From Candidatus Aldehydirespiratoraceae bacterium (GTDB taxonomy: Bacteria; Actinomycetota; Acidimicrobiia; Acidimicrobiales; Aldehydirespiratoraceae): 64,000 bases of DNA. Below, piece by piece: positions 8,116-63,496 of the stretch. The stretch spans positions 2,272,813-2,336,812 of the forward strand of contig CBDHCN010000002.1 in assembly GCA_965261185.1 (NCBI GenBank), in the 5' to 3' direction. Each line of letters begins with the position of its first letter. Position 1 is the first letter of the stretch. The translations under genes were made by a program, and so were the position numbers. Under the pieces are notes generated by a model. It did not search any database, was not told the origin of the DNA, and saw only the letters and a program-made list of their open reading frames with translations.

Positions 8116-8946
8116 ATGGGCAGGATTCGCAACACGTTTGAACTGGCAAAACTCTCGTGGGGGGTGCTTAAGAAGGACCGCGAGTTGTTGGCGATTCCGG
8201 TTTTGTCGTTTCTCGTCTCCGCAGCGCTGTTGATTCCGCTTGTGTTTGCTGCGTTTGCTTTGGCCAGCACCGATTCTGGGACCACTGAAGAGACCACCGC
8301 GAGTCCCGCCATGGCGATCGTGGCGATCGTTGCCGCTTTGGGTCTGAGCGTGATCAGCGTCTTCTTCAACGGTGCCTTGGTCGCGGGCGCGCACGAACGG
8401 CTCACGGGTGGTGATCCGACCGTTGGTTCCGCAATACGCAAAGCGTTCAGCCGGATTCCAGGCTTGGTGCCCTGGGCGATACTTACCGCCACCGTTGGTC
8501 TGATTTTGCGTTCTCTTCGTGAGCGGGCAGGTTTTTTGGGTCGGATGGTAGTCAGCGCGGTTGGGATGGCCTGGGAAATCGCCACGTTCCTTGTTGTTCC
8601 AGCGATCATTATCGATGACAAAGGGGCTTGGGACGGCGTAAAGACCTCCGGTTCGTTGCTTAAGTCCACCTGGGGTGAAAACCTCGCGGCCCGGGTCGGG
8701 TTCGGGCTCTTAGGTTTCGTGGCAATTCTGCCAGCGATCCTCGTGGGTGCTGTCCTGGGTTCTTTGGGTGGTGCTGGCCTCATTCTCGGCATCATCATCG
8801 GGGTTGCCTGGATTGGACTTGTGGTCGTCGTGATGACAGCGCTCAATGCGGTGTTCCAGACAGCGCTTTATCTCTATGCAACATCGGGGATGGCCCCGAG
8901 CGGTTTCGAGGGTTCCAGCATCGGTCAGAGTTTCAAGCGCCGCTAA
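8116..8946 (+). CDS. polytopic integral membrane protein (possibly DUF6159-like)
   Basis: 276 aa with multiple hydrophobic segments. ggag lies upstream of the ATG. Confidence 0.6.
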   Translation: MGRIRNTFELAKLSWGVLKKDRELLAIPVLSFLVSAALLIPLVFAAFALASTDSGTTEETTASPAMAIVAIVAALGLSVISVFFNGALVAGAHERLTGGDPTVGSAIRKAFSRIPGLVPWAILTATVGLILRSLRERAGFLGRMVVSAVGMAWEIATFLVVPAIIIDDKGAWDGVKTSGSLLKSTWGENLAARVGFGLLGFVAILPAILVGAVLGSLGGAGLILGIIIGVAWIGLVVVVMTALNAVFQTALYLYATSGMAPSGFEGSSIGQSFKRR

Positions 8947-9920: not shown

Positions 9921-9927
9921 CAATACC

Positions 9928-11460: not shown

Positions 11461-11477
11461 GGTGGGGCCCGGCCGAA

Positions 11478-11783
11478 TCAGTCTGAGGCAGGCAGGGTTT
11501 TCGCCTCAGCGACGCTCAAAGCGGCCCCAGCAATGGTCATGGAGCCTGCTCCGCCTTTGGTGGCTAGCAGTTCAACGGTGCCTTCCGGGTTGCTGTAACG
11601 CTTACCGAGCAGGGTGCCTTCGGCTGCATTCGGTGCAGGCTCGCCGGTGATTTCGTTGGCTCCCGCTGCAACCATGGCGGCGCCGCCACAGGCCAACTCG
11701 GCCTCACCATCGCCTTTCACCACGATTACTTGCGTGGTGCAAACCGTGCTCTGGAAGCGGGCACCGGGCTTTAGTTCGACCAT
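11478..11783 (-). CDS. small Gly/Ala-rich hypothetical protein
   Basis: 101-aa ORF lying 17 nt downstream of nothing else and upstream of the ligase on the same strand. I recognise no family. Confidence 0.4.
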   Translation of the reverse strand: MVELKPGARFQSTVCTTQVIVVKGDGEAELACGGAAMVAAGANEITGEPAPNAAEGTLLGKRYSNPEGTVELLATKGGAGSMTIAGAALSVAEAKTLPASD

Positions 11784-11902
11784 CGTCTGTTACTCCTGGG
11801 CGTTGGTTGGTGCTCCATTGTGCCGCGAAGCCTGGCTGAGACCAAAGCAGCCCTGGTGTTTGCCGCGGTTTTGGCCAACCAGAGTGGCTATCGTCGGGCG
11901 TC

Positions 11903-13165
11903 ATGAGGCGACGGGAGTGCGATCTCGTGGCGTGGGCGTCAAGTGGTGCCATGTGGTTGACGGGCCAGCGGGACGGTCCGCCGTCGGCCGCTCCGGCTCG
12001 GGTGGCTGAAGCTCTGGTCGCGGCAGCTGGCGATCTGGCACAACAGACCGCCCGATGGGGCCGAACCGTGGTTGTCGACGGACCCTCCTTGATGGGCGAA
12101 CGTGCCGCGCTCACCGGTATGAGCCGCAACGGCGATACGTCGGTCGGAGGGTCGGCTCTTTTCGTGCAAGCAGCTGACGGCTGGATCGTGGCGAACCTCG
12201 CTCGGACCGAGGATGTGGAGTCACTTCCGGCGCTTGTGGGCCAATCGTTGAGCGCCGCTGACTGGCCTATGATTGCCGCTGGTATCGGTCAACTTCCCAG
12301 CGCTGAGATTGTAGATAAGGCAACGCTGCTCGGGATCCCGATAGCGGTTCCGTCTAGTTATCCGATACCTGCCTCATCACCTAGTCGGGAACTTCATCGT
12401 GGTGGCCCGCGCCGGGTGGTTGAGCGGCCTTTGGTTGTGGACCTCACATCTTTGTGGGCCGGTCCGTTGGTCGGCGGGCTGCTCGCCGAGGCTGGTGCTC
12501 GGGTTGTGAAAGTGGAAGGCACGGGCCGTCCCGACGGGGCTCGCAGAGGGACTCCTGAGTTCTTTGATCTGCTCAACCACGCCAAAGAATGCGTCGAAAT
12601 CGACTTCACGAACGCCGACGACCAAGCGTTTCTGCGCCGTTTGCTGGCCGCTGCCGACCTCGTTTTGGAGGGCTCTCGACCTCGGGTGATGGATCAACTG
12701 GGGGTCGATCCCTGCGCACTGGCCGATACGGGTGTTGCCTGGTTGTCGATCAGTGCATATGGCCGGACCGGGGATGCGGCGTTGCGTGTCGGATTCGGGG
12801 ACGATACGGCAGTAGCGGGAGGTCTTTGGTTGCCCGGCGACCCTCCCGGCTTTGTCGCTGACGCAGTAGCTGATCCGATCACGGGTTTGGCAGCAGCCGC
12901 TTTGGGGGGGCGGTTGTTGGCTTCAAAGCATGCGGCGGTTGTGGAGATGCCACTCGCCCGAGCCGCAGCCTGGGCTGCGACCTTTGCGACATCAGATTCT
13001 GTCGATGCGCGTCTGCACAATGATGGTGATCGGTGGCTGGTGGAAGTCGCCGACGAATGGCTACCGGTCTTGCCGCCACGACACCGAGCGTTGCCATCAC
13101 CGGCGCAACCGGTGGGTAGTCACAGCGCTTCGCTCAGAGCGGAGTTCAGAGCAACCCACACATGA
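11903..13165 (+). CDS. family III CoA-transferase (CaiB/BaiF)
   Basis: 420 aa. The LVVDLTSLWAGPLVGGLLAEAGARVVKVE motif is typical of family III CoA-transferases. Confidence 0.75.
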   Translation: MRRRECDLVAWASSGAMWLTGQRDGPPSAAPARVAEALVAAAGDLAQQTARWGRTVVVDGPSLMGERAALTGMSRNGDTSVGGSALFVQAADGWIVANLARTEDVESLPALVGQSLSAADWPMIAAGIGQLPSAEIVDKATLLGIPIAVPSSYPIPASSPSRELHRGGPRRVVERPLVVDLTSLWAGPLVGGLLAEAGARVVKVEGTGRPDGARRGTPEFFDLLNHAKECVEIDFTNADDQAFLRRLLAAADLVLEGSRPRVMDQLGVDPCALADTGVAWLSISAYGRTGDAALRVGFGDDTAVAGGLWLPGDPPGFVADAVADPITGLAAAALGGRLLASKHAAVVEMPLARAAAWAATFATSDSVDARLHNDGDRWLVEVADEWLPVLPPRHRALPSPAQPVGSHSASLRAEFRATHT

Positions 13166-13215
13166 GGTAGACCGAGAGTTCGTGTGCGTCGGGGGAGTTG
13201 CTAGGGTCACTTTCG

Positions 13216-14715
13216 ATGGGCGATAGCCACGATTGGGGTGAAACCCTTGACGATTTAGAGGCACGCCGGGCAACAGCATTCGCTATGGGAGGCACCGAAA
13301 AGTTGGGTGCCCGTGCTGCGTCGGGGCGCCTAGATGCCCGCAGTCGGGTTGCGGGGCTGCTTGACGATGGCTCGTTTACCGAGATCGGTACATTGGCAGG
13401 TGGGTCCGCTCCGGCTGATGCTCTGGTCGCTGGCGTGGGAAAAATCGATGGTCGCTCCGTGGCGGTTGGCGCTGAAGATTTCACGACTATGGGCGGTTCG
13501 ATCGGTGCGGCCGCTTCACGCAAACGCTGGCGTATCGCCGATATCGCCCGCCGTGAACGTATCCCGTTAGTGATGCTGCTCGAAGGTGCCGGCCATCGAC
13601 CACCGAGACCAGGGGACCCCGCTGGCGGTGGCCCGGGTGATCTCCAAGCTCAGGGGCGGCTCTCGGGTTACGTGCCGATGGTGTGCGCGGTGATGGGTTC
13701 ATCGGCCGGTCACGGCGCTATCACTGCGCCGTTGTGCGACTGGTCAGTTATGACCGCCGACGCCGCTATTTTTACAGCCGGTCCGCCGGTGGTGAAGGCA
13801 TCGCTGGGTGAAGACGTCACTAAAGGCGAACTGGGCGGCCCGGCCGTAGCAATAGCTAGCGGTGTGGTACACAATGTCGCGGCTGACGATGTTTCGTTGC
13901 TTGCCGATGTGCGCACGTATTTAGGGTTTTTTGGGTCGTCGGCGTGGGAACAGCCCCCATGGTGCGATACCGGTGATCTCGGGCCTAGGCGCCTAGAAGA
14001 CATGCTTGAGATTGTCCCCCGTGATGGTTCTGCAGGTTACGACATGCGGCTCGCGGTGAGCCGGCTAGTTGACGGCGGCGGGTTCTTTCAGATCCAACCC
14101 GATTTTGGTCCGTCAATCGTATGTGCGCTTGCTCGCATCGGAGGCTGCGCGGTTGGGGTGGTGGCCAACCAGCCTGCGGTCATCTCGGGTTCGATTGACG
14201 TTGACGCGGCCGATAAAGCAGCTCATTTCATCGAAGTGTGCGACAGTTTCCATCTTCCTTTGGTGTTCTTGACTGATAACCCGGGTGTATTGGCGGGAAC
14301 GGCCTCGGAGCGCGCTGGGATCCTGCGGGCGGGCGCTCGCATGTTCACCGCCCAAACCCGTGCTTCAACGGTCAAGATTCAGGTCACGATGCGCAAGGCG
14401 TACGGGTTCGGTTCGTGTGTGATGGCAATGAATTCCTTCGACAATCAGACAGTGTCGTATGCGTTTCCGGGCGCCACGATGGGGGCTATGGGTTCGGCGG
14501 GCGCTAGTGACGCGGTGGGTGCCGATGCGGTCACCCGTGAACAGCTCCGACAGGCGGAGTTGGAATCGAGTTACCGTTCAGCGTCGGGACTCGGCTTCGA
14601 CGAGTTGATCGATCCGCGAGACCTGCGCAACGCCGTCCTCGCAGGTCTTGAGTTGAGCGCTCGCCGTCGCATGGCGGCCCCTCAACCCAAAGCCCGCGTC
14701 GGAATCACCCCCTGA
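13216..14715 (+). CDS. acyl-CoA carboxylase carboxyltransferase (beta) subunit
   Basis: About 500 aa with two crotonase-like CT halves (GGSIGAAASRK..., LVFLTDNPGVLAGTASERAGILRAG). I chose the ATG at 13216. The track ORF begins at the TTG at 13198. Confidence 0.8.
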   Translation: MGDSHDWGETLDDLEARRATAFAMGGTEKLGARAASGRLDARSRVAGLLDDGSFTEIGTLAGGSAPADALVAGVGKIDGRSVAVGAEDFTTMGGSIGAAASRKRWRIADIARRERIPLVMLLEGAGHRPPRPGDPAGGGPGDLQAQGRLSGYVPMVCAVMGSSAGHGAITAPLCDWSVMTADAAIFTAGPPVVKASLGEDVTKGELGGPAVAIASGVVHNVAADDVSLLADVRTYLGFFGSSAWEQPPWCDTGDLGPRRLEDMLEIVPRDGSAGYDMRLAVSRLVDGGGFFQIQPDFGPSIVCALARIGGCAVGVVANQPAVISGSIDVDAADKAAHFIEVCDSFHLPLVFLTDNPGVLAGTASERAGILRAGARMFTAQTRASTVKIQVTMRKAYGFGSCVMAMNSFDNQTVSYAFPGATMGAMGSAGASDAVGADAVTREQLRQAELESSYRSASGLGFDELIDPRDLRNAVLAGLELSARRRMAAPQPKARVGITP

Positions 14716-14731
14716 AGCGGCAGTCTTGGAA

Positions 14732-15709
14732 CTACTCGGGCTTAACGTAGAGATCGACTTCCAGGGTCGGGTTCAGAACGTCTTCCGTTTCCAGCCCGGC
14801 GGGTTGTCGGGCGAGCGTCTCTTGCACCTGGCAGAGCATTTCGTCGTACTCGCTAGGTGGGACCAACCAGAACTCGGAGTGAACCCGTAGTCGTAAGTGC
14901 TCGATGGACTCCCGATGCATCATAGTTTTGGTCCACTTGAGATCCGCAACGTCAAGTTGCAGGTGGGTCATGTTGAGGGTGGCGAAAACGGAGGAGATTA
15001 CATAACGATCCCCCTTTTGTCGCTGTGGCAAGGATCCCCGTTCATCACACATTTCGCGGAAGTGTCGCCTGGGTGTGCTGTCGAAAGCGTTATTCCCGTG
15101 GACTACGATCACGATGCCACCGGGTCGCACGACACGCGCTAGTTCTTGGGTGACCTGTGCAGCGTTACCGAGGTGCAGAAACAGTCTGGAGATAATGGCC
15201 GCATCGAAATAGTTTTCGGGGAGGTCCATGTTTTCGGCATCGCCATAAACGAAAGATCCCCGCCACCCCGTCTGAAGCTCCGAATCTGCCTGCTCAAGCA
15301 TGGTCGACGACGTGTCAACCCCGGTCACTTCGAAACCCGAATCCATGAGTGGCATTGCGAGTCGCCCTGTTCCGCAATTGATATCAAGGACTTCCCAAGT
15401 GGAGTCCATGCTGGTCAGCGCCCCGATTCGGGTGTAACAATCCCCAAGCAGATCAGCGGGGATGTCTCTCGTGCTGTCGTGCCAGTCAGCAATTGAATCG
15501 TGGTCCGGCTCCTCTTCGGACCTCTTCATCAGGCCAACACCATTCATCTCGACGCGACGTGGTCTCAACACCCAGTAGGCCAAAGTTCTCAAGATGTCTG
15601 GCGCGACCCCGACCCGGCCAATCAGCTTCATGGTCTTGAAAAATACCTTCGCCCGCCTGCCCTCAAAGTAGCCTGAGTAGCGTGGCTTCTTTGGGGAGCG
15701 TTCGCTCAT
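14732..15709 (-). CDS. class I SAM-dependent methyltransferase
   Basis: VLDINCGTGRLAMPL (motif I) and a downstream GGIVIV motif. A sampled line is about 50% GC, lower than the flanks. The start codon is uncertain. Confidence 0.7.
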   Translation of the reverse strand: MSERSPKKPRYSGYFEGRRAKVFFKTMKLIGRVGVAPDILRTLAYWVLRPRRVEMNGVGLMKRSEEEPDHDSIADWHDSTRDIPADLLGDCYTRIGALTSMDSTWEVLDINCGTGRLAMPLMDSGFEVTGVDTSSTMLEQADSELQTGWRGSFVYGDAENMDLPENYFDAAIISRLFLHLGNAAQVTQELARVVRPGGIVIVVHGNNAFDSTPRRHFREMCDERGSLPQRQKGDRYVISSVFATLNMTHLQLDVADLKWTKTMMHRESIEHLRLRVHSEFWLVPPSEYDEMLCQVQETLARQPAGLETEDVLNPTLEVDLYVKPE

Positions 15710-15838
15710 TCGAGAGGTTCGATCTCTGCAGATTCTTGCCAGAATATTTCGAAGTAGCCGTCGTCAGATTGAAGCGTCGCACCCTCCATCGCGAAATCAT
15801 AGGAGCGCTAAGCCCGTCTTCACTAGAGGTAGCGCCAT

Positions 15839-15946
15839 ATCCGCCTCAGACGCTGGATCCATGACTACAACGGTCACCGACACAGCACCGCCCTAGGCGA
15901 CTCATCCGCGTCCTGCGCGAACAACCTCACGCGAAGCGAAAGCTAG
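15839..15946 (+). pseudogene. C-terminal remnant of an IS481/IS3-type (DDE) transposase
   Basis: My translation gives IRLRRWIHDYNGHRHSTALGDSSASCANNLTRSES*. This matches the conserved W...YN..RPH.ALGG....NNL C-terminus of these transposases. No intact upstream reading frame exists. Confidence 0.5.
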
Positions 15947-16013
15947 CGACGCGGTTGGTGCGGATGCGGTCACCCGTGAACCACTTCGACAGGCTGAGTT
16001 GGTCGCTGGATAG
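15942..16013 (+). pseudogene. orphan fragment duplicating part of the carboxyltransferase 3' region
   Basis: It translates to ASDAVGADAVTREPLRQAELVAG*, versus GASDAVGADAVTREQLRQAELESS at 14503-14570. The nucleotide copies are clearly related but diverged. Confidence 0.6.
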
Positions 16014-16041
16014 CCGCTGTGCCTTCGCCTAACGTTGCAAA

Positions 16042-16878
16042 ATGCTCAGCGTCGACGACCTGACCTCGTTTAACAACGATGGGTTCGTGATGGTTGGTGC
16101 GGTCCTCGACACAGATCAGATTGACCAACTGCGGGAGCGATTCGAGCGGGTTTTTGCTGGTGAGTTTGAAACCGGCACCGCTCCCGACGAGGTCAACTGG
16201 CAGCAAGGCAAAAGCGATCCGTCTCTGACCCGCCAAATATGCAACGCTTGGAAAGCCGACCGGCTCATCGCGGCCACGGTGCTTGACGAGCGCCTCGGCG
16301 CGGCCGTGGCCCGCCTGGCGGGCTGGCCCGGAGCGCGTATCGTGCAGGACAACGTGATTTGGAAACCGCCGGGGGCCAAATCGCTGGGCTTTCACCGCGA
16401 CAACGCCTACCTGGCCTGGTACACGCCGAGCGAGATGTGTTCGTGTTGGATAGCCCTCGACGACACCACAGCCTCGGGCGGCACCTTGGAATTGGCCCGC
16501 GGATCGCACCGTTGGCCAACAAAGGCTGATCCGCAGGGTGAGTTCCACGCTCCCGACGACTACAGGACGACCGTTGCGGCTGCTGCCGCGGCCGCAGGCG
16601 CTGAACTCGACATCGCCGCGCTGGAGTTGGCTGCTGGTGAAGCGGCGTTTCATCACGGATGGGCCTGGCACGGTTCGGGCCCGAACCAATCGGGGGCGCA
16701 CCGTCGGGCGCTGGTGCTGCACTGCGCGAGCAGCGAGGCCCGCTTCTGCCGTGCAGGATTCGGTTCGGGCAACGGCCCGGTGTATAGCCGTTATGCACGG
16801 CTCAACGATGATGAGATGGACGAAAACCACTTCCCGATCCTGTGGCACCGCGACGGCTACCGCACTCCAGGCATTTGA
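16042..16878 (+). CDS. phytanoyl-CoA dioxygenase (PhyH) family Fe(II)/2-oxoglutarate oxygenase
   Basis: 278 aa with a typical PhyH N-terminus (FNNDGFVMVGAVL) and an H.D ... H metal triad context (GFHRDN ... HHGWAWH). Confidence 0.75.
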   Translation: MLSVDDLTSFNNDGFVMVGAVLDTDQIDQLRERFERVFAGEFETGTAPDEVNWQQGKSDPSLTRQICNAWKADRLIAATVLDERLGAAVARLAGWPGARIVQDNVIWKPPGAKSLGFHRDNAYLAWYTPSEMCSCWIALDDTTASGGTLELARGSHRWPTKADPQGEFHAPDDYRTTVAAAAAAAGAELDIAALELAAGEAAFHHGWAWHGSGPNQSGAHRRALVLHCASSEARFCRAGFGSGNGPVYSRYARLNDDEMDENHFPILWHRDGYRTPGI

Positions 16879-16947
16879 ATTCGCGCGCTGAACACAGACT
16901 GCGCGGTTCTAGTTTCGTGTTTTGGTGCTGGTAGGGTCCGCGTCGGT

Positions 16948-17928
16948 ATGGAACAGATTGAACTTGTTGGTTTGGATAAACCTGTCAGCCGGTTGGTGCA
17001 CGGTTCGACAGGTTTGTTGGGTGCTGATGACACAGCGGCGTTTCCGGTGCTCGAAGCGGCTTTCGACGCGGGAATAAACGTTTTTGACACAGCTGCGGCG
17101 TATGCCTTCGGTGACTACAGCATGGATGCGATGCTCGGCCGGTGGATCCGGGACCGCGGCGGATGCGATGACATCGTTGTGATTGCCAAAGGCGCTCATC
17201 CGGCACCGCCTGACTGGCATCTCCCGCGGGTGAACCCGGCCGCTGTGGCCGACGACATTGATCTGACCCGTGATCGGATGGGCTTGGATTGTCTTGATCT
17301 TTGGTTGTTTCACCGCGACGACCCGACGGTAGACATTGGGTCGCTGGTTGAGGCTGCCACGGCGGCTGTTGATCGAGACCACATCAGTGCTTGGGGTGTG
17401 TCGAACTGGTCGGTGGCGCGGATCAAAGCCGCGATCGACTACGCGGCTGATCATGGTCTTCGCGCGCCGGTTTGCAATAGCGCCCACTACAGCCTCGCAA
17501 CCCAGCTTGACAGCCCTTGGGACGATGTGGTCACACTCACCGGTGAAGCGCAAGCGGATGACCGCGAATGGCATCGTGAAAGCGCTGTGAAGGTTGTTGC
17601 GTGGTCGGCGCTCGCGGGTGGTTTTTTGAGCGAGCGGGTCAGTCGAGAAGACTTGGAAGACCAGCCCGCGCCACATTTGGCAGACACCGCGCGATGTTAT
17701 TTCAACGAAGAGAACTGGCAACGCCGCGAGCGGGCCGCGGAGGTGGGTCGCGGTATGGATCTGAGCTTGAGCCAAACTGCACTGGCCTGGGTTTTTGCCG
17801 CTGATTTTCAACCTATGGCTATTGCGGGCAGCGTCACACCAGACGAAGTTCGTGAGAACGTCGCCGCGCAGGAAGCGCAGTTGAGCGAAGCAGACATCAG
17901 CTACATCAACGGAGGACCGGCGATTTAA
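16948..17928 (+). CDS. aldo/keto reductase
   Basis: 326 aa with GINVFDTAAAYAFG, a DLWLFHRDD-type motif and a WGVSNW motif. Confidence 0.8.
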   Translation: MEQIELVGLDKPVSRLVHGSTGLLGADDTAAFPVLEAAFDAGINVFDTAAAYAFGDYSMDAMLGRWIRDRGGCDDIVVIAKGAHPAPPDWHLPRVNPAAVADDIDLTRDRMGLDCLDLWLFHRDDPTVDIGSLVEAATAAVDRDHISAWGVSNWSVARIKAAIDYAADHGLRAPVCNSAHYSLATQLDSPWDDVVTLTGEAQADDREWHRESAVKVVAWSALAGGFLSERVSREDLEDQPAPHLADTARCYFNEENWQRRERAAEVGRGMDLSLSQTALAWVFAADFQPMAIAGSVTPDEVRENVAAQEAQLSEADISYINGGPAI

Positions 17929-17968
17929 GCCGTCATGGCCGTGACAGGCCCGCACCTCAGCATGGGCA

Positions 17969-18823
17969 CTATCGAGTCTGGCCTTCGACGCCTACTTGGT
18001 CGAGTACTTCAAGATCGTCGTTGTGGCTGTGGGTGAAACCTAGTTGGCGTTCGATTTGTACGGTTGGTTCTGACCGGAAGGCGATGACGTAGGCACGGCG
18101 GAACCCGGCGGTGCTGTTGCCCCCTGAGCCGTGCATGACCTGTTCGTTGTGCACCGTCACGTCACCGCGGCTGATCGGGACATGGACCGGCTCGTCCGTG
18201 TCCAACAGGTCTGTGCCGAGGGCGTGTGATTTGCCGCGGTCGCCGTATTGCGGGGTGTGGGGCCGTAGCGCGGGTTCTTTGTTGGTTGCCGGCACGAAAC
18301 GCATACAGCCGTTTTCTATGGTGGAGTCGTCAATAGCCAGCCAGAAGGTGGCGGTGCGGGTGTCGGGTGTTTCGGGCCAATAGGCCATGTCTTGATGCCA
18401 GGCAAAGATCGCATCTTCTTTGTAGGGCTGTTTGGCCAGGAGTTGGTCATAGTCGATTGTCATCTGGTCGCCGTGCAGTTGGCGGACCGCTGAAGCGGCG
18501 CGGCGTTCGAAAATGTTGTCGCACCATGCTGGGTAGTAGCGCCGCGGCAACATGACATTGATGATCGAGAAATCTTCAGGTTTTCGGCCGTGGTCGCCTG
18601 CCATATCGCAGTAGTCCTTACCGGGCACCTCAATCTCGCGTCGCAGGAATCGGTCGTATGTCTCTTCGAGTCCCGCTACTTCGTCCTCGGTCAAAAGGCC
18701 GCGCAGATGCACAAAGCCGAACTCCTGAAAATGCGCCCTCTCGTCGTCCGAGACCCGGTACGTGTCGCCGTCGATCCGTTCATTCAGTCGAGTTGACGGT
18801 GTCATGGTCACAGTTTCGCGCAT
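17969..18823 (-). CDS. phytanoyl-CoA dioxygenase (PhyH) family protein
   Basis: 284 aa with FQEFGFVHLRGLL, WHQDMAYW (HxD) and a C-terminal VMHGSGGN. The start could instead be the ATG at 18805. Confidence 0.75.
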   Translation of the reverse strand: MRETVTMTPSTRLNERIDGDTYRVSDDERAHFQEFGFVHLRGLLTEDEVAGLEETYDRFLRREIEVPGKDYCDMAGDHGRKPEDFSIINVMLPRRYYPAWCDNIFERRAASAVRQLHGDQMTIDYDQLLAKQPYKEDAIFAWHQDMAYWPETPDTRTATFWLAIDDSTIENGCMRFVPATNKEPALRPHTPQYGDRGKSHALGTDLLDTDEPVHVPISRGDVTVHNEQVMHGSGGNSTAGFRRAYVIAFRSEPTVQIERQLGFTHSHNDDLEVLDQVGVEGQTR

Positions 18824-18952
18824 TTTGTTGGGTCGGCACCCTTCGGTTCGGTCGAGATTGCCGATGTAGGAACAAGAAGTTGCAGTTGTGCCCTCTTTGG
18901 CGTCTGTCTTTATTGCCTCAAGCTGTCGAGACTGTGCCAGTAAGGTGCGGCC

Positions 18953-19462
18953 ATGGCCGTCAGAGCACTCCTTGCCGACGAGGTTTCGGACTACAAGGCG
19001 ATACGGTTGCGCGCTCTTTTTGTTGATCCACAGGCATTCTGTTCAACCCATGAGTACGAGTCTGCGTTCGACGAGACAACGTGGATGGGTCGTCTGACAT
19101 CGTTCGCGGGGAGACCCGGGACAGTGTTCGTCGACGAGATTGACGGTGAACTACTGGCGATGCTGGGTGTCGGATGCACCCCGGTACACGGCCAAGCGAC
19201 GATCTGGGGTATGTGGGTTGAACCAGTCGCTCGACGCCGCGGCTCGGCCCGACGTTTGCTCGGTGCCGCGTTCGATTGGTGCGATCAGCGGGGTTTGACT
19301 TCGCTCAGTCTGGAGGTGCTCCCGGCGAACAAGGCTGCGATTGCGTTGTACCGCTCGGTTGGATTCACCGAGGCACGATCCACCGATGCCGACGCTGACG
19401 AGATCATGATGTCCGCCCCGGTCATTCGAGGTGCAGAGAATCACCACACTCGAGTATTTTAA
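18953..19462 (+). CDS. GNAT family N-acetyltransferase
   Basis: 169 aa with the acetyl-CoA motif VEPVARRRGSARRLL and NKAAIALYRSVGF. The last 41 nt overlap the convergent ORF 19422..19952. Confidence 0.8.
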   Translation: MAVRALLADEVSDYKAIRLRALFVDPQAFCSTHEYESAFDETTWMGRLTSFAGRPGTVFVDEIDGELLAMLGVGCTPVHGQATIWGMWVEPVARRRGSARRLLGAAFDWCDQRGLTSLSLEVLPANKAAIALYRSVGFTEARSTDADADEIMMSAPVIRGAENHHTRVF

Positions 19463-19952
19463 GCTTGACGGGTGTTGACCCGAAGCTCAGGCTGGCGAGT
19501 CTGTCTCTCAACGAATACCTGAGCTTGTCTAGTTCTCGTCCTGCAACGAAATACGCCGTGAGGTTGAGTTTGAGTCCGTTTTCTTCAAAGTGGTCAATTA
19601 GTACTCGCAGTCCTTCGCGGAGTTGTTCTATGTCATCCGGGTTTGCGGCGCCGCTTTTTAACTCAATCGGCACAAGCTGAGCAAGACTGCTATTAACCGC
19701 TAGGACGGCGAAGTCGCACATTCTCGTGTCTTGACCCTTTTTGACAAACCGATATTCGGCTCCGGGAACATCAAGACGCAGAATGTAGAGACAGCGATGA
19801 GTGACTGTTGTCTGTATGTCGAGGCGACACAAGTTTTCCTCCAGGTCGAACAACGAGACTGCTTCTGCGCCATGTTCGAGTAGCTTCGAGTTGAGATTGC
19901 AGACTTGGCACTCTGCGCTCAAGCAGCGCAAAGTCTCGGATTCGACGGACAT
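19422..19952 (-). CDS. hypothetical protein with an N-terminal Cys cluster and a PD-(D/E)xK-like motif
   Basis: 176 aa with C10/C15/C18, and D80 (CDFAVL) followed by E97-L-K99 (VPIELKSG). It starts 6 nt after the ATPase stop. The segment is low-GC. Confidence 0.6.
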   Translation of the reverse strand: MSVESETLRCLSAECQVCNLNSKLLEHGAEAVSLFDLEENLCRLDIQTTVTHRCLYILRLDVPGAEYRFVKKGQDTRMCDFAVLAVNSSLAQLVPIELKSGAANPDDIEQLREGLRVLIDHFEENGLKLNLTAYFVAGRELDKLRYSLRDRLASLSFGSTPVKLKILECGDSLHLE

Positions 19953-19958
19953 TGGCGA

Positions 19959-21410
19959 CTATTCGTTAGAACTGTCGATCAAGTCATTCACGAGTTGAGA
20001 TGTCGTGTCGTACTGCGCCCGCATCACATCGGTGAACGTTGACTCGTCTACACCGTCTATACGGTCAGGATCCACGCGTTGCGCTACGCACGCGCCATTT
20101 TCGCGCGAAAAACGCAGGCATCGCACCCTCGATCGATCAATACTTGGCAACCCGAAGGGGTTCTCCGCGGAGTCTGACAATTCGTGGACTCGCATCATGT
20201 TGTTGAACTGAGTGACGAAGAAGTCGGAATGAGTGGTGAGCACGATGCGGCCGCCGTTGTTCACCAATTTGGCCAGGAACGACGCGACGCGCATCTGCAT
20301 CGCGGGGTGCAGATGCGCCTCTGGTTCGTCAATGGTGAGATGATCGACAAAATAGTGAGACCGCAAGACGAGAAGCAGTGGAGCTAGTTCCGACAGCATC
20401 GACGATGTTCGGGCCATAGGGAAGCGCCCCTCGGAAGTTACGGCGACGATGGAATCCACGCCTTCTGCGTTCGGATCAACCTCGATCGCCACTTGCAAGT
20501 CCTCCTCGAATTCATCTACGAGAGGATCAAAAACCGATGGCATGTCTTTCACTTCGAAGAGTAATTCAGGAATCTCAAGCACGAGTGAAAGAAAGTCAGC
20601 CGCCGTGCCTGTCAGGGTTCCAAACTTGATCGGTCGGATGCCTGCCCTGGTTGCTTGTCGTATCACCGAACCTGCTAGAACGCTATGACTTTGCATTATC
20701 CCCGTTCGATCGGCCGGCAGATGACTAGCTGAGCTCGGCCAAGACGAGAACAGCATGGAGAACGCAACTTGGTCGGTCACGCGATCTAGGCGCGGTGTAT
20801 GGGATTCGCGTCGCCAGCCGTGTGCCTTCAGATTCCTGAAAGTGGTTGTTTGCCGTATTTCTTGGGGATGCAACGCGCGTTGAAGCCAGCCAACCGGGTC
20901 CAACAGATTTACCGACGAAGTATCCGAGTCAAACCTGACTTCTACTTCCCAATCACGTAGCGAACCACTTATGCGAAGGTAGCTGTCGTCCGCATTGCCG
21001 TTTGGTGTTTTTCTCCGTAGGTCTGAGGCTTGTGCCCCGAATGCGTATTCGACGCTGTCTCGTACGTCGGACGCGTAGCGTTCCAGGATGTTTGTTGCGA
21101 GACTCTTCGCCCACTCCACCGTTTGGTCGCTCGGTGTGCGCGTGAACTCCTCGGACACCGTTGAGTCGCCGTCCGGATCATCAAGCACACGTAAAATCCA
21201 CTCTTGAACTTCAACCGGAACCTCGGTCGGTCGACCAATTCGGTCAAGTCGGGAATGTGGTTCGGGCTTGGCATCGAGAACGCGGTGCAGGACGGTCGCA
21301 AAGAAGGTTTTGCCCGTGTTGTTTTCGCCGATGAGTAGATTCAGGTCGCCTAGTTCCATCTGGGCGGATCGAAGTGGCCCGAGATTGGACAGTTCTACTG
21401 AGATGCTCAC
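19959..21410 (-). CDS. ABC/AAA_15-AAA_21-like ATPase (OLD / PtuA / AriA-type architecture)
   Basis: 483 aa with an N-terminal Walker A (LLIGENNTGKTF), a long insert, then TSSMLSEL, Walker B (LTIDEPEAHLHP) and an H-loop (LTTHSDFF). Sampled lines are 42-52% GC. Confidence 0.8.
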   Translation of the reverse strand: MSISVELSNLGPLRSAQMELGDLNLLIGENNTGKTFFATVLHRVLDAKPEPHSRLDRIGRPTEVPVEVQEWILRVLDDPDGDSTVSEEFTRTPSDQTVEWAKSLATNILERYASDVRDSVEYAFGAQASDLRRKTPNGNADDSYLRISGSLRDWEVEVRFDSDTSSVNLLDPVGWLQRALHPQEIRQTTTFRNLKAHGWRRESHTPRLDRVTDQVAFSMLFSSWPSSASHLPADRTGIMQSHSVLAGSVIRQATRAGIRPIKFGTLTGTAADFLSLVLEIPELLFEVKDMPSVFDPLVDEFEEDLQVAIEVDPNAEGVDSIVAVTSEGRFPMARTSSMLSELAPLLLVLRSHYFVDHLTIDEPEAHLHPAMQMRVASFLAKLVNNGGRIVLTTHSDFFVTQFNNMMRVHELSDSAENPFGLPSIDRSRVRCLRFSRENGACVAQRVDPDRIDGVDESTFTDVMRAQYDTTSQLVNDLIDSSNE

Positions 21411-21454
21411 AAGACCAGACTAGCGGGGCGGACTTGTAGGAGTCAGCGGCGAGG

Positions 21455-22576
21455 CTAGGACAGAGCCGACACGACGTAGTCGAGGCAGGCGGTTAGAGCT
21501 TCGATGTCGCTGGGGTCGATGGCGGGGAACAAACCGATACGGAGTTGGTTGCGGCCCAGACTGCGGTATCCGAAAGTGTCGACGATGCCGTTTGCCAACA
21601 ACACGTCGTAGATCGTGTCGGCGCTTACTGCGTCGGAGAAGTCGATGGTGGCAACGACCTTGCTGCGCTGCTGTAGGTCTTGGACGAACGGGCTGGCGAA
21701 GTCGCGGCTGGAAGCCCACGAATACATGATCTCGGCCGATTGCGCACAACGGCCGGCGGACCAGGTCAAACCACCGTTTTCGTTGAACCAGTTGACCGTG
21801 TGTGCGGTCAAGAACACGGTTGCCAAAGCGGGCGTGTTGTAGGTCTGATCTTTGCGAGAGTTGTCGATAGCCAATTTGAGATCGAGCGTTGGGGGAATCC
21901 ATCGGTCGCTCGCGGCGATGCGTTCGACACGTTCGATTGCCGCCGGTGACAACATCGCGATCCACAGACCACCGTCACCGGCCATCGCTTTTTGAGGCGC
22001 GAAATAGTAGGCGTCGGCAGCGCCACCGTCGAACATCAAACCGCCCGCCGCAGAGGTTGCGTCGACCAGCATCAGTGCGCCTTCGTCGTCGACCCGGGTC
22101 GGGTTCAGCATCACACCGGTTGATGTCTCGTTGTGGGGATAGCAGTAGGCGTCGACGTCCTCCACAGCAACCAGCGGGGGGTGGGTTCCAAAATCGGAGG
22201 TCGTCACTGAGGGGGCACGCAGATGTGGCGCGCCCCCGACACCTCGAGCGAATTTGCCGCTGAACTCACCGAAACAGAGATGGTGACTGCGCTCGTCAAT
22301 CAAACTAAACGTGGCGCAATCCCAAAAACCCGTAGCACCACCGTTGCCCACCACGACTTCATAACCGTCAGGAGCACGAAGGAGTTCCGCAATACCGTTA
22401 CGGAGTTCGGCCACCGCCAGCCTCACCGGCATGCGACGATGCGAGGTGCCCATATAGTCGGTAGCTCGAGCGCTCAGAGCCTTGAGAGCTTCGGGACGAA
22501 CCTTGGTCGGCCCGCTCCCAAATCGTCCATCAACAGGGAGCAGGTCGGCAGGAATGATGATGTCTGGAATTGTCAC
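21455..22576 (-). CDS. serC: phosphoserine aminotransferase (actinobacterial type)
   Basis: IIPADLLPVDGRFGSGPTKVRPEAL, YFAPQK and a C-terminal GRNQLRIGLFPAI match actinobacterial SerC. The GTG at 22576 gives 373 aa. The track ORF to 22648 would leave only 5 nt to the divergent gene. Confidence 0.85.
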   Translation of the reverse strand: MTIPDIIIPADLLPVDGRFGSGPTKVRPEALKALSARATDYMGTSHRRMPVRLAVAELRNGIAELLRAPDGYEVVVGNGGATGFWDCATFSLIDERSHHLCFGEFSGKFARGVGGAPHLRAPSVTTSDFGTHPPLVAVEDVDAYCYPHNETSTGVMLNPTRVDDEGALMLVDATSAAGGLMFDGGAADAYYFAPQKAMAGDGGLWIAMLSPAAIERVERIAASDRWIPPTLDLKLAIDNSRKDQTYNTPALATVFLTAHTVNWFNENGGLTWSAGRCAQSAEIMYSWASSRDFASPFVQDLQQRSKVVATIDFSDAVSADTIYDVLLANGIVDTFGYRSLGRNQLRIGLFPAIDPSDIEALTACLDYVVSALS

Positions 22577-22680
22577 GGCGCCAATCTTGACAGCAAAACG
22601 GAGGTTTCGGCGGGTATTTCGCGGATCTTCAAACAGAATTTCCCGCACGCGGCATGGGCATCTCGCTAGCCTCCCGCGGT

Positions 22681-23880
22681 ATGTCTACTGACCGCATTTC
22701 AACCCGGGTGTCCGCCATCGCACCCTCGGCGACTCTCGCCGTCTCCAACAAAGCCAAAGCACTACGAGCCGCAGGTGAACCAGTCATCGGTTTTGGCGCG
22801 GGAGAACCCGACTTCGCCACTCCCGAACACATCGTGGAAGCGGCCATAGCAGCCTGTCGCAACCCGAAAATGCACAAGTACTCGCCTGTAGGTGGCCTCC
22901 CTGAACTGAAGGAGGCCATCGCCGCGAAGACCATGCGCGACAGCGGCCTGCCATGTTCCGCTGCAGACGTATTGGTAACCAACGGCGGAAAGCACGCCGT
23001 GTACAACGCCTTTGAGGCTTTGTTGAATCCAGGTGACGAAGTGTTGTTGCCGACACCGTATTGGACCACCTATCCCGAGCCGATTGCGCTGGCTGGGGGC
23101 GTAACGGTTCCCGTGTTGACCGAAGCGGTCGATGGTTTCAGGGCCTCGCTGGAGCAACTTGAAGCCGCACGCACCGAACAAACCAAGGCATTCGTTTTTG
23201 TGTCGCCCTCGAATCCGACAGGGGCCGTGTATCCCCGCGAAGAGATTGAGGCAATCGGGCGCTGGGCTGTCGAGCACGGTCTCTGGGTCTTAACCGACGA
23301 GATCTACGAACACCTCGTATATGGCGACAACGAACACCATTCAATGCCAGTGGTTGTACCTGAGTTACGCGATAAGTGCATTGTGCTCAATGGCGTGGCC
23401 AAGACCTACGCCATGACTGGATGGCGGGTCGGTTGGATGATCGGTCGGGCCGATGTGATCAAAGCGGCGCAAAACCTGCAATCGCACTGCACCAGCAATG
23501 TTGCCAATGTCTGTCAGGCAGCGGCGCTCGCCGCGGTTTCGGGGCCGCTCGATGCCGTCGAACGGATGCGAGAAGCTTTTGATCGTCGTCGCAAAGCCAT
23601 GTACGGGTTGCTGAGTGGCATCGACGGCGTCTGGTGCCCCGAACCCCAAGGTGCCTTCTACGCCTATCCAGACTTAACGGGAGTGCTCGGGCGCAACTAT
23701 GGCGGAGTAACGCCGACGACCACAATTGAGTTGGCAGAGCTGATGCTTGAGCAGATCAAGGTGGCGATCGTGCCGGGTGAGGCTTTCGGAGTTGGCGGGG
23801 GAGCCCGGCTCTCATTCGCGCTCGGTGATGATGATCTCGGCGAGGGTGTGGGCCGCATCGTCGAATATCTCAACGGCTGA
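22681..23880 (+). CDS. aspC: class I pyridoxal-phosphate aminotransferase (aspartate aminotransferase-like)
   Basis: [10 protein letters not shown] and [16 protein letters not shown] (PLP lysine context). The likely start is [13 protein letters not shown] at 22681. The track ORF starts at 22654. Confidence 0.8.
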
Positions 23881-61043: not shown

Positions 61044-61928
61044 TCAATTGAAGACATCTTGGCGTGTGATTAGGAGTTCGGAAATCCGAGCGTGGTGAGC
61101 GTTCTTCATTACAACTTCTACGGCGTGAAATCCGTATTCGGCAATCAGTTCTGCGATCTCAGAGGAACGGTCGTAGGTCATTAAGAAGTCCATCGAGGTC
61201 GCAGCCAGGATCTTGAAGAGATGACGGTGGTCGATTTGGTGGTGGGCGTAGAGGCGATTACCAGCACGCTTACCGCCAGCTGTGTATGGCGGGTCAATGA
61301 AGGCGACGGTGCCGGGGACGTCGGCAACGACCTCCAAGAGTTCCAGTCCGTCGGTTTCGCAGAAGGTGATCTGCGGCGCATGGGCTTCGATGTTCTGCAG
61401 TCGCTTGATGATGGTGTCGGGGTACCACCGAGAGGAGAGTCCCTTGTTGTTCTCTCCCGACTTTGTCAAGGCAGCTCCTGGGGCCAAGATACCGCCTCGT
61501 CGAGTGCGATTGAGCACCAGAGTTCGGAATCCGTGCTCCAGCAAGTCCCGGTTAGGTCCGTAAGCCAGGGCGGAGACAGTTTCGCGTGTGGGTTGAAACT
61601 CCGAGACGAGATGACATAAGTCGGAGTTGTGGCGCAGCGCAGCGTGCCAGAAGGCGGCCACATCGTGATCGAGTTCAGCCATGATGCTTCGTTCAACCAG
61701 GGCTTCGCAGACCGCAGTGAGAGCTACCGTCCCGCCACCACTGAAAGGCTCAATGAGAACCTTGGGCCTTGGTTGGATGGGTGCAAGCCAAGCTCGAATG
61801 TGTGGAATCAACCAAGTCTTGCCGCCTGGGTAGCGCAGCGGCGAGCGCTGAGGCACCGAAGCCACATTGGCCGCGGGGATGGGCGACACAGGAAAACCTG
61901 GGCCGCAGTCGGGCGAAAGGGATCCCAT
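61044..61928 (-). CDS. D12-class (Dam-like) N6-adenine DNA methyltransferase
   Basis: LRYPGGKTWLIPHI, EPFSGGG (SAM motif) and FIDPPY catalytic motif. I chose the ATG at 61928 (294 aa). The track ORF extends to 62273. Confidence 0.8.
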   Translation of the reverse strand: MGSLSPDCGPGFPVSPIPAANVASVPQRSPLRYPGGKTWLIPHIRAWLAPIQPRPKVLIEPFSGGGTVALTAVCEALVERSIMAELDHDVAAFWHAALRHNSDLCHLVSEFQPTRETVSALAYGPNRDLLEHGFRTLVLNRTRRGGILAPGAALTKSGENNKGLSSRWYPDTIIKRLQNIEAHAPQITFCETDGLELLEVVADVPGTVAFIDPPYTAGGKRAGNRLYAHHQIDHRHLFKILAATSMDFLMTYDRSSEIAELIAEYGFHAVEVVMKNAHHARISELLITRQDVFN

Positions 61929-62320
61929 TGTCGAAAGTCGATGGGTCACTGCGGAACCCTCAGTCTGCGAAGAGTCGTCTCTATTCCCTGTATCGCTGAC
62001 CAGCATGCCACGGTCGCGATCCCTAGCGGTGGAACCACGGTCAGGGTGGCCAGCATTTGCGTGAAGTGTTGGGGTCCACGCAGGGATCTGCATCTGTTCA
62101 ACTCTCGGTTTCTGCTGCATAATTTGAACGTATACATAGGGTGTGACAGCTCTGATGGAGTCTCCAGGCGTTACCAACTGTTGCCTCGGCAACAAAATGG
62201 GCCGCACTGCTCGACGCGGTTCCCTCACGTCAGCGACCTCAGCCGCCGATGGGCAACCACACAGACCGACCACCGGTGAACCGAGTATTCGTAAGCATGC
62301 CCTGTCGTCCAGGGGTTTGG

Positions 62321-62394
62321 TCGGGACGACTGGATTTGAACCAGCGACCCCCTGCTCCCAAAGCAGGTGCGCTACCGAGCTGCGCCACGTCCCG
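62321..62394 (-). tRNA. tRNA-Pro (anticodon TGG), with CCA encoded at 62318-62320
   Basis: Hand-folded cloverleaf. Acceptor cgggacg/cgtcccg, anticodon stem cctgc/gcagg with loop ttTGGga, T arm gctgg-ttcaaat-ccagt. Confidence 0.85.
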
Positions 62395-62438
62395 TGCTGT
62401 GCAATCTACCCCCTAGCGCCCGGCTTCGCTCCCAATTG

Positions 62439-62485
62439 AAATCTGCGCGATAAACCACACACCTTGTAGTTAAACGCGCAGATTT
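62439..62485. repeat. 47-bp palindromic element, copy 2
   Basis: aaatctgcgcgataaaccacacaccttgtagttaaacgcgcagattt. It differs from copy 3 at 2 positions. Confidence 0.9.
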
Positions 62486-62557
62486 GGAATTGATTTCGGG
62501 TTAAGACGGAGGGGGTCGGGCAAACAGACGGGCATACTTCGGCGACTTCCTCCCTGA

Positions 62558-63496
62558 TTGGCAGACCGATGGACCGGCATGCACAACGAGGAAGTAACCA
62601 AGATCATCCGGCGTCAGCACGGAGTTGTCTCGCGCAAGCAAGCCTTGCAGTCAGGACTCTCTGCCCGACAACTTGAGTATCAATGCACAACGAAGCGGTG
62701 GCTTCGTATCGGTCCGGGCGTTTACCGACATGGTGCGGTTGCGGCAACCTGGAAGAGTCAACTGCTCGCCGCCTGCCTGATTTCCAATGGCGTCGCTAGC
62801 CATCGTTCGGCCGCTGCCCTTCACGGGATCGACGGATTCCGCGAGACGGTTCGAGAGATCACGGTTCCCGAGGGACGCTGGAAACCTATCGATGCGGTGA
62901 GAGTTCACCAGACCCGGCAATGGTATGCCGCCCAGTACATCGTCCGCGATCACATCCCGTGTACCGACCTGGGTCGAACGATCATTGACGTTGCTGCGGT
63001 TGCGAACCCACGGCGAGTTCAAGAGATGGTCGACGCCGTTTTGCGCGCGAGTCGGTTCGATCTGTCAGATCTGTATGCAATCGTCGTGCGCCATGCGAGC
63101 AAGGGTCGAAACGGATGCGGTGTGCTGCGCGAGGTGCTCGACAGCAGAATGCCGGACTCGGGGGTTCCCTTGAGCAAGTGGAGTCGTCTCGTCAGCAGGC
63201 TCCTTGTAGACGCAGGCCTGCCCGAGCCGGTGTACGAGTACCGGATCTTGGATCGCTCCGGGGCACTTATTGCCCAAGTGGACCTAGCCTTTCCAGAAGC
63301 GAAGGTCGCGATTGAACTCGACAGCATCGCATGGCACTTCAACCGAGCTTCGTTTCATCACGACCGGGCGAGATGGAACGCGATCACGCGTGAGCGCTGG
63401 ACGCCTCTGGTGTTCACGTGGTCGATGTACGTAGACACACCCGAGGATCTAATCGCTGCCGTCCAGAGCCTGCTCACACCGAAATCTGCGCGATAA
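62558..63496 (+). CDS. DUF559 (Vsr-like endonuclease fold) protein with an AbiEi-like N-terminal wHTH
   Basis: N-terminal RRQHGVVSRKQALQSGLSARQLEYQCTTKRWLRIGPGVYRH and C-terminal VAIELDSIAWHF...RARWNAITRERWTPLVFTW. The last 5 codons and the stop lie inside palindrome copy 3. The start is uncertain: 62558 or the ATG at 62579. Confidence 0.75.
   Translation: MADRWTGMHNEEVTKIIRRQHGVVSRKQALQSGLSARQLEYQCTTKRWLRIGPGVYRHGAVAATWKSQLLAACLISNGVASHRSAAALHGIDGFRETVREITVPEGRWKPIDAVRVHQTRQWYAAQYIVRDHIPCTDLGRTIIDVAAVANPRRVQEMVDAVLRASRFDLSDLYAIVVRHASKGRNGCGVLREVLDSRMPDSGVPLSKWSRLVSRLLVDAGLPEPVYEYRILDRSGALIAQVDLAFPEAKVAIELDSIAWHFNRASFHHDRARWNAITRERWTPLVFTWSMYVDTPEDLIAAVQSLLTPKSAR

Follow-up and report, generated by a model that had tools for sequence, protein, structure and literature searches.

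A diverged pair of genes for an ABC ATPase and a predicted PD-(D/E)xK nuclease downstream of serC in Acidimicrobiia, probably related to the PD-T4-4 and WonAB defence systems

Results

Two closely spaced genes downstream of serC

We examined a stretch of 64,000 nucleotides (henceforth the window) on contig CBDHCN010000002.1 of a Candidatus Aldehydirespiratoraceae bacterium of the class Acidimicrobiia, and within it two adjacent genes that an earlier note, made from the sequence alone, had picked out as a candidate defence system. Gene A (19959..21410, minus strand) encodes an ATPase of 483 amino acids (aa), and gene B (19422..19952, minus strand) encodes a small cysteine-rich protein of 176 aa; the two open reading frames (ORFs), their lengths and their common strand are as the note had given them. 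A spacer of 6 nucleotides (nt; 19953..19958, minus strand) separates the stop codon of the ATPase gene from the ATG of the small gene, a distance implying an operon or translational coupling. The GTG start of the ATPase gene is supported by homology that begins at residue 1 in all loci. Upstream on the same strand lies serC, whose stop codon is 44 nt from this GTG (21411..21454, minus strand). A scan of this spacer for promoters and terminators gave none that was recognisable, the sites found being not above shuffled sequence, so read-through from serC is possible. At its 3' end the small gene overlaps a convergent GNAT gene by 41 nt, and an Rfam search of 14500..22800 returned no RNA. The GC content is 54.8% in the ATPase gene and 50.7% in the small gene, as compared to 59.6% for the window and 58-62% for the flanks in 300-nt windows, and GC at third codon positions is 0.60 and 0.55, respectively, versus 0.62-0.70 in the comparison. 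The pair is thus GC-poor, as had been claimed, but by a smaller step than the 42-52% against about 63% that the note had counted.

Gene A encodes an OLD-like ABC ATPase with variable inserts

The product of gene A is an OLD-like ABC ATPase with a split head, long inserts and a C-terminal extension of about 70 residues, in agreement with its original placement in the OLD, Septu and PARIS class. It matches Pfam AAA_15 at E = 2.8e-21 (77 bits, cut-off 32.1) and AAA_21 at 5.9e-13. An AlphaFold (AF2) model, with a predicted local distance difference test score (pLDDT) of 80.9 and a predicted template modelling score (pTM) of 0.82, retrieved PtuA (Septu, retron I-A) as the best Foldseek match at 1.9e-10, followed by Rad50, SMC and RecN heads, all with probability 1.00. 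The profile of the ATPase family matches PtuA, OLD and GajA chains over the stretch from Walker B to the H-loop, and a PDB search with the single ATPase sequence gave no match.

The four motifs recognised in the earlier note are all in place and conserved across the 40 homologues over which we scored them. The Walker A motif or P-loop, GENNTGKT (residues 28-35; 21306..21329, minus strand), has invariant G28, N30, N31, G33, K34 and T35. In the ABC signature-like TSSMLSEL (residues 335-342; 20385..20408, minus strand) S336 is invariant, while S337, M338, S340, E341 and L342 are conserved in ≥90%. Walker B and the D-loop, LTIDEPEAHLHP (residues 358-369; 20304..20339, minus strand), take the form DEPExHLHP with D361, E362, P363, E364, H366, L367, H368 and P369 invariant, and T392, T393, H394 and S395 are invariant in the H-loop LTTHSDFF (residues 391-398, with H394 as its histidine; 20217..20240, minus strand). 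The C-terminal extension (residues 413-483; 19962..20174, minus strand) is modelled as two strands (residues 429-437 and 440-445) and a long helix (residues 456-481), with F434, C441 and F459 invariant. Variability is concentrated in the inserts, at residues 47-120, 181-220 and 281-320, where the entropy reaches 2.0-3.2 bits versus 0.5-1.3 bits in the nucleotide-binding core. We regard the ATPase as the putative sensor or regulator of the pair.

Gene B encodes a predicted minimal nuclease with conserved cysteines

The Pfam, NCBIfam and PHROG libraries hold no usable family for the small protein. A word-seeded search yielded 40 clusters of relatives, and a profile-based search, run exhaustively over 1.84 billion representatives, yielded 90, of which 60 had E <= 1e-10. 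The residues that the earlier note had singled out, C10, C15, C18, D80 and E97-x-K99 within VPIELKSG, are all present. Among 51 diverse relatives none departs from D80 or E97 (51/51 each), and K99 (50/51), C79 (50/51) and Q110 (49/51) are nearly invariant. The predicted catalytic core, TRMCDF...IELKSG, covers residues 76-101 (19650..19727, minus strand), with C79-D80 at 19713..19718 and E97-L-K99 at 19656..19664. In the AF2 model (pLDDT 83.7, pTM 0.83) the elements follow in alpha-beta-beta-beta-alpha-beta order, with D80 opening the second core strand and E97-x-K99 placed on the strand that follows. When the family profile was compared with solved structures, only EndoMS/NucS was matched (5gke_A at E = 2.8e-4; 2vld), in an alignment of about 70 residues that sets ELK on ELK and continues through a Q-containing helix into the next strand. 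The best Foldseek match of the model, HamA, is non-significant (E = 0.019, probability 0.87, TM-score 0.35), and the presence of R.BspD6I, McrC, FokI and Cdn1 among the higher-probability matches gives weak support. The three PDB matches of the single sequence, to flavivirus NS5 polymerases (E ~0.02) and NsNEPS2 (0.26), are likewise non-significant, and we took them as noise. On the strength of the motif with its invariant D80 and E97, the modelled topology and the EndoMS profile match, we accept the small protein as a predicted minimal PD-(D/E)xK nuclease, as had been suggested, and as the putative effector of the pair.

The protein also carries seven conserved cysteines. Three of them form an N-terminal C10-x4-C15-x2-C18 motif (19899..19925, minus strand) that is conserved in 24, 27 and 23, respectively, of the 27-29 relatives with a residue there, and C54 is found in 31/51 relatives. 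These four are present in the subfamily of long proteins (170-195 aa) and gapped in the short subfamily; they form a possible four-cysteine metal site. A second set comprises C42 (47/51), C79, which directly adjoins the catalytic aspartate, and C169 (46/51). So many conserved cysteines in a small cytoplasmic protein suggest binding of zinc or of an iron-sulphur (Fe-S) cluster, the candidate class being that of metal-binding nucleases such as the Cas4/AddB type with its 'iron staple'.

The two genes are strictly linked and diverge together

The earlier note had proposed to look for the two genes as neighbours in other genomes. Wherever either gene occurs, in about 21 distinct places, the small gene directly follows the ATPase gene on the same strand, and the aligned gap between them is 10-79 nt throughout. 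Their identities to the window pair fall in step, from 85% and 78-90% down to 34% and 31% for the ATPase and the small protein, respectively (r = 0.99; 22 pairs, including a few redundant ones). The two genes are a strictly linked, co-diverging functional unit.

Carriers are mostly metagenome-assembled genomes (MAGs) of Acidimicrobiia, many from sponge-symbiont lineages (Aldehydirespiratoraceae, Poriferisodalis, Spongiisociaceae), and one is a Gemmatimonadota MAG. The neighbours of the pair differ from locus to locus and include housekeeping genes, IS110 and ISL3 insertion sequence (IS) elements, HicAB, large helicases and other AAA_15 genes. Two genomes each hold the pair in two diverged copies, one at L012 and L016 (NZ_OZ240249.1) and the other at L010 and L013 (isolate 42010ebb); in one such case the small proteins are 50% and 33% identical to that of the window. 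The small gene is truncated in three loci (L013/L029, L019 and L028). A search of phage genomes brought up three weak Vibrio-phage matches to the ATPase only.

The copy in the Gemmatimonadota MAG (L020, positions 1-13449; CBDEVM010000002.1), whose ATPase is 46% identical to that of the window, sits in IS-rich surroundings with two ISL3 transposases, IS3-like fragments and a second AAA_15/AAA_21 gene, a setting that suggests transfer between phyla.

We also considered the GNAT gene as a third component, since it diverges as fast as the pair; it is convergent to the module in the window and in L028, and we rejected it because its homologues occur in five close relatives only.

The pair occupies a variable site

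Five close relatives (L001, L002 and L005-L007) have the pair at the same site. When compared with the last three of these, serC, aspC and the aldo-keto reductase show 96-100% protein identity, as opposed to about 85% for the ATPase and 78-90% for the small protein. The ratio of nonsynonymous to synonymous substitution rates (dN/dS) is 0.31-0.35 for the ATPase gene (dS 0.21-0.23) and 0.36-0.45 for the small gene (dS 0.15-0.30), versus 0.04-0.18 for the flanking genes (dS 0.03-0.27). Conservation at about 21 loci and dN/dS of 0.31-0.45 show that both ORFs are real genes and no chance frames, and the pair is functional; selection on it is relaxed purifying or in part diversifying, and some allelic exchange may have taken place.

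More distant relatives were collected by a metagenome scan with the serC protein (serC 68-91% identical); a scan with a degenerate pattern for the 3' end of serC found nothing. These relatives retain the gene order S9-peptidase, aspC, serC, and none of them has homologues of the ATPase, small, GNAT, PhyH or aldo-keto reductase genes. In three (L037, L040 and L041) serC directly abuts, in convergent orientation, the orthologue of the carboxyltransferase gene at 13198..14715 of the window. This junction without the pair shows that the window bears a lineage-specific segment of 6.7 kb (14716..21454) between the convergent carboxyltransferase and serC genes. The segment contains genes for an S-adenosylmethionine-dependent (SAM) methyltransferase, a PhyH protein, an aldo-keto reductase, a second PhyH protein, the GNAT protein, the nuclease and the ATPase; the pair forms its serC end, and the remaining genes are metabolic. 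The view that the pair was inserted downstream of serC is therefore borne out by the junctions in related genomes, but the unit is the 6.7-kb segment with five more genes and not the pair alone.

In four other relatives (L031, L032, L038 and L039) yet other gene arrangements follow serC. Depending on the relative, the gene after serC is the carboxyltransferase, an orthologue of the window genes near 12.9 kb or, in L031, a homologue of a gene at about 8.0-8.9 kb. Since the arrangement differs in almost every relative, the position after serC is a variable point of recurrent rearrangement. Within the close relatives, L005 (10497-10842) lacks the PhyH gene (17969..18823 of the window) and most of the GNAT gene, of which residues 113-168 remain; the segment beside the module thus varies even within the clade.

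Relation to PD-T4-4, PDC-M47 and WonAB

Searches with the PADLOC models placed the ATPase closest to PD-T4-4_A (2.3e-28, 97.6 bits), followed by PDC-M47A (9.5e-24) and AriA (1.6e-22), with further matches to HEC-02A (4.1e-15), to GajA and Old, and to PtuA (9.3e-10, weak). For the small protein the closest model is PDC-M47B, which is matched by 9/20 close relatives (best 7.8e-4) and by distant relatives down to 1.7e-7; PD-T4-4_B is reached at 1.7e-3 by 3/51 distant relatives.

PD-T4-4, entered as 'ATPase, nuclease', comes from E. coli ECOR58 and protects E. coli (Vassallo et al., 2022; PMC9519451). The ATPase component is of the ABC type (10.1101/2024.01.29.577857), and the system has been described as a PD-(D/E)XK nuclease with a P-loop NTPase that form higher-order complexes and are inactive on all DNA substrates tried (10.1101/2025.07.10.664194). 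For comparison we took genuine PD-T4-4 pairs from enterobacterial plasmids (L024, L025 and L026), of which L024 matches the A model at 1.3e-262 and the B model at 3.1e-108. Genuine PD-T4-4_B proteins cross-match PDC-M47B, so that the two B families are related. In hhalign comparisons the alignment of the window ATPase with genuine PD-T4-4_A (99.4% probability, E = 7.6e-22) was confined to the C-terminal 185 columns, which include the extension, and the small protein aligned with the PD-T4-4_B core at 69% probability (E = 4.3e-5) over 53 columns. The latter alignment sets KMCDF on KSCDL and ELKSG on D(L/Q)KS, with a Q in the next helix shared, and it makes a cysteine before the catalytic aspartate common to both small-protein families. 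At the level of these profiles, homology of the ATPase with PD-T4-4_A appears supported, and that of the nuclease cores supported weakly.

The three comparison plasmids are small Col-type and IncX4 plasmids (L024, NZ_CP056167.1; L026, NZ_CP051743.1; L025, NZ_OW849157.1), and their pairs are annotated merely as 'AAA family ATPase' and 'hypothetical protein'. The pair of L025 has a truncated ATPase and lies between inverted copies of a block that contains a recombinase.

The likeness to PD-T4-4 extends to the layout. Both consist of two genes on the same strand, ATPase first and nuclease immediately downstream, as in the genuine plasmid loci, and the plasmid copies measure 483 + 209 aa and 462 + 198 aa as compared to 483 + 176 aa in the window. 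The ATPases share the motifs DEPExxLHP and TTHSD and a homologous C-terminal extension, and the nuclease cores share the pattern (K/R)xCD ... (E/D)xKS ... Q. By contrast, the N-terminal two-thirds of the window ATPase, inserts included, cannot be aligned with PD-T4-4_A, and the CX4CX2C motif, C42, C54 and C169 are absent from PD-T4-4_B, which retains only the cysteine before the catalytic aspartate. The hosts differ as well, being Acidimicrobiia and Gemmatimonadota MAGs for the window family, whereas PD-T4-4 resides on plasmids or integrative and conjugative elements of Enterobacteriaceae.

PDC-M47, which we compared through its PADLOC models alone, resembles the window pair in that PDC-M47A is the second-best match of the ATPase, the profile lengths of 461 and 186 fit the gene sizes, and PDC-M47B is the closest, if weakly matching, model for the small protein. 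It is one of 145 predicted, 'guilt-by-embedding' phage defence candidates of PADLOC v2 (Payne et al., 2024 preprint), and a literature search for 'PDC-M47' found it named in no paper.

WonAB, from the Vibrio cholerae WASA-1 prophage, is a PD-T4-4-related two-gene operon of an OLD-type ABC ATPase and a variant PD-(D/E)xK nuclease (Adams et al., 2025; PMC12137116). Its activity requires both genes, the ATPase residues K34, E300 and H333, and the nuclease lysine; it aborts infection, translation stopping while genomic DNA stays intact (PMC12137116). According to the prediction, WonB attaches to the C-terminal extensions of WonA in their dimerised state; it is toxic only with active WonA, and the authors tested a simple toxin-antitoxin model and discarded it (PMC12137116). 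They count WonAB, PD-T4-4 and an operon present in 0.96% of genomes among the members of a wider family in which ABC-ATPase sensors are coupled to nucleases, and their paper is our source for the 'OLD-ABC ATPase + novel REase' class of Krishnan et al. (2020) (PMC12137116). Going by the published description, K34, E362 and H394 of the window ATPase and K99 of its nuclease are equivalent to the residues required in WonAB. Unlike the window pair, WonAB is borne by a prophage and found mainly in Gram-negative bacteria (PMC12137116); the window nuclease has a cysteine cluster, whereas the word 'cysteine' occurs 0 times in the WonAB paper; and the abortive, translation-blocking mechanism has been demonstrated for WonAB only.

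PARIS, Septu, Gabija/OLD and HEC-02 share with the window pair an ATPase of the same OLD-like ABC clade with long inserts and the logic of an ATPase sensor with a nuclease effector, and PtuA of Septu provides the closest solved structures to the window ATPase model. Their effectors are different from the small stand-alone PD-(D/E)xK protein of the window. AriB of PARIS is a DUF4435/TOPRIM protein, PtuB of Septu an HNH protein and the HEC-02 partner a NERD-domain protein, whereas the window partner has no AriB, TOPRIM, HNH, PtuB or NERD match in PADLOC or Pfam. In Gabija/OLD a TOPRIM domain is fused to the ATPase, and Gabija adds the GajB helicase; the window locus has neither, its ATPase having no TOPRIM match in Pfam, ending in a short beta-beta-alpha extension and having no helicase as neighbour. 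EndoMS/NucS, finally, differs in having an N-terminal domain for DNA binding and dimerisation and in working in mismatch repair with no ABC ATPase as partner; the cysteine set is missing from it.

Hence the earlier claim that the pair matches no named system does not hold. The best PADLOC models are PD-T4-4_A and PDC-M47A, genuine PD-T4-4 proteins align, and WonAB, like the predicted candidate PDC-M47, has the same architecture. The note had rightly seen that the partner is not an HNH, TOPRIM/DUF4435 or helicase effector, but was wrong in leaving the pair without a named relative. That relative is reached by remote homology and not by automatic detection, for lack of a PD-T4-4_B match and with PDC-M47B at E = 0.016.

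Discussion

A probable defence operon of the ABC ATPase-nuclease class

Taken together, we consider it likely that the locus is a two-gene operon directed against phages or mobile elements, and that it belongs, as a deeply diverged branch, to the class of ABC-ATPase sensors with PD-(D/E)xK nucleases that includes PD-T4-4, WonAB and the predicted PDC-M47. So far this branch is found mostly in MAGs of Acidimicrobiia, many of them sponge symbionts. The pair is probably a distant relative of PD-T4-4/WonAB-type systems and not a wholly new kind of system. A defence role is our best reading, and the anti-phage function of this family is one we would extend to it from its homology with WonAB and PD-T4-4. 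The evolution of the pair is defence-like, with dN/dS above that of the flanks, variability in the inserts, absence in syntenic relatives, two copies per genome and some loci near IS elements, HicAB or helicases.

Several observations weigh against this assignment. The ATPase reaches about 98 bits on PD-T4-4_A in two partial stretches, as opposed to 300-870 bits over the full length for genuine members, and it scores nearly as well on AriA. The PD-T4-4_B model gave no match at E <= 1 for the window protein or 19 close relatives, the only PADLOC match of the window protein is the weak one to PDC-M47B (E = 0.016, 12.9 bits), and the profile match with PD-T4-4_B is short and at 69% probability. 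The structural comparison that the earlier note had recommended gave clear matches for the ATPase but, in PDB or BFVD, nothing at E <= 0.001 for the small protein. We found in the window no integrase, tRNA or flanking or terminal repeat that would mark insertion of the pair, and its immediate neighbourhood is metabolic and no defence island. Viral contigs scanned by close alignment held no relatives, and the fact that all five close relatives retain the pair at this site would also fit a host function.

As the complete, conserved set of ABC motifs suggests, the ATPase would form an ATP-dependent head-to-head dimer whose hypervariable inserts offer a surface sensing an infection cue. By analogy with WonAB, the small nuclease would dock on the conserved C-terminal extension, and ATP binding or hydrolysis would license or stabilise it; the nuclease would then cut an essential nucleic acid through D80, E97 and K99 and the infected cell would be arrested. 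As the least certain step, the target may be RNA (tRNA or rRNA) and not bulk DNA, a proposal we make because WonAB halts translation with genomic DNA intact and PD-T4-4 is inactive on the DNA tested. The seven cysteines would probably hold one or two metal centres, of zinc or Fe-S, that stabilise or gate the nuclease. A fuller version of this last idea has CX4CX2C with C54 and C42/C79/C169 as the two cysteine sets binding one or two such centres, C441 of the ATPase perhaps completing a site between the subunits, and the nuclease gated by metal or redox state together with the ATPase. As a whole we think it rather unlikely; if true, the pair would stand for a subclass of PD-T4-4/WonAB-type effectors that bear a metal cluster and escape current detection tools.

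Alternative explanations

It is unlikely that the pair is a selfish addiction module that stabilises the 6.7-kb segment in the manner of a toxin-antitoxin system, the nuclease being the toxin and the ATPase its controller. A tightly coupled two-gene operon with a potentially toxic nuclease at the edge of a lineage-specific segment is what such a module would look like, the Pfam label of AAA_21 reads 'putative AbiEii toxin, Type IV TA system', and some homologues adjoin HicAB and IS elements; against this, the toxin-antitoxin model was rejected for WonAB, where WonB is toxic only with active WonA, and no mobility genes lie beside the pair in the window. Addiction and abortive infection are, moreover, compatible roles in these families.

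We find it distinctly unlikely that the pair is an entirely new and unnamed defence system, with no relationship to those described beyond sharing a common ABC ATPase module. The small protein, which belongs to no Pfam, PHROG or NCBIfam family and has no B-component match better than that to PDC-M47B, would allow such a reading, as would the ATPase inserts that cannot be aligned with PD-T4-4_A and the cysteine set missing from PD-T4-4_B. Yet the C-terminal part of the ATPase, extension included, aligns with genuine PD-T4-4_A at 99.4% probability, the nuclease core motifs align with PD-T4-4_B down to the unusual Cys-Asp, intermediate family members match PDC-M47B at 1.7e-7, and gene order, sizes and tight spacing are the same as in PD-T4-4.

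In Actinomycetota, mismatch repair relies on NucS in place of MutS/MutL, and one could picture a domesticated host pair for DNA repair or genome maintenance, composed of a Rad50/RecN-like ABC ATPase and a NucS/EndoMS-like nuclease. EndoMS and NucS are indeed the sole solved-structure matches of the small-protein profile, the ATPase model resembles Rad50, SMC and RecN heads, the neighbours are housekeeping genes with serC 44 nt upstream on the same strand, and the pair is retained at one site in five related genomes. We nevertheless judge this explanation very unlikely, given the sporadic distribution of the family (only 90 representatives among 1.84 billion), its absence from syntenic relatives, an evolution much faster than that of the flanks, the truncated copies at some loci and the two divergent copies in single genomes. 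The NucS match, furthermore, is limited to the generic catalytic strand and helix, the N-terminal DNA-binding domain of NucS being absent, and the best ATPase family matches are defence ATPases.

A decaying remnant without current function, to which the truncated small genes at three other loci and a GC content below that of the host genome might point, is excluded for the window pair by dN/dS of 0.31-0.45, well below 1, and by motif conservation, both ORFs being intact with all catalytic and nucleotide-binding residues preserved, and we consider it extremely unlikely.

On the favoured assignment to the PD-T4-4/WonAB class, no new principle of immunity is revealed, but a class so far represented by PD-T4-4 of E. 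coli and WonAB of Vibrio would be extended to Acidimicrobiia and at least one Gemmatimonadota MAG. PADLOC would probably miss this branch; as its B-component models are not reached, the branch is probably underrepresented in censuses of defence systems in these uncultured groups. For biochemistry on the class, the conserved cysteines and the Cys-Asp motif common to the catalytic cores are concrete handles.

Other features of the window

Within the 6.7-kb segment and its border, a direct repeat of 61 nt (14503-14563 and 15942-16002; 89% identity, about 65 nt in a gapped alignment) duplicates part of the 3' end of the carboxyltransferase gene and brackets the methyltransferase gene of lower GC content (14732..15709, minus strand). 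The repeat pair looks like the scar of a separate insertion inside the segment.

One of the 57 window ORFs strongly matches the PADLOC single-gene candidate PDC-S01 (3.6e-52). About 40 kb from the pair, a tRNA-Pro gene (62318..62394) has on one side a DNA-methyltransferase-like gene (61044..62273, minus strand; PD-Lambda-5_B at 3e-47, MTase_II at 1.5e-34) and on the other an AbiEi-like gene (62558..63496, plus strand; 7.8e-26), and this patch (61044..63496) may be a second defence or mobile patch of the window.

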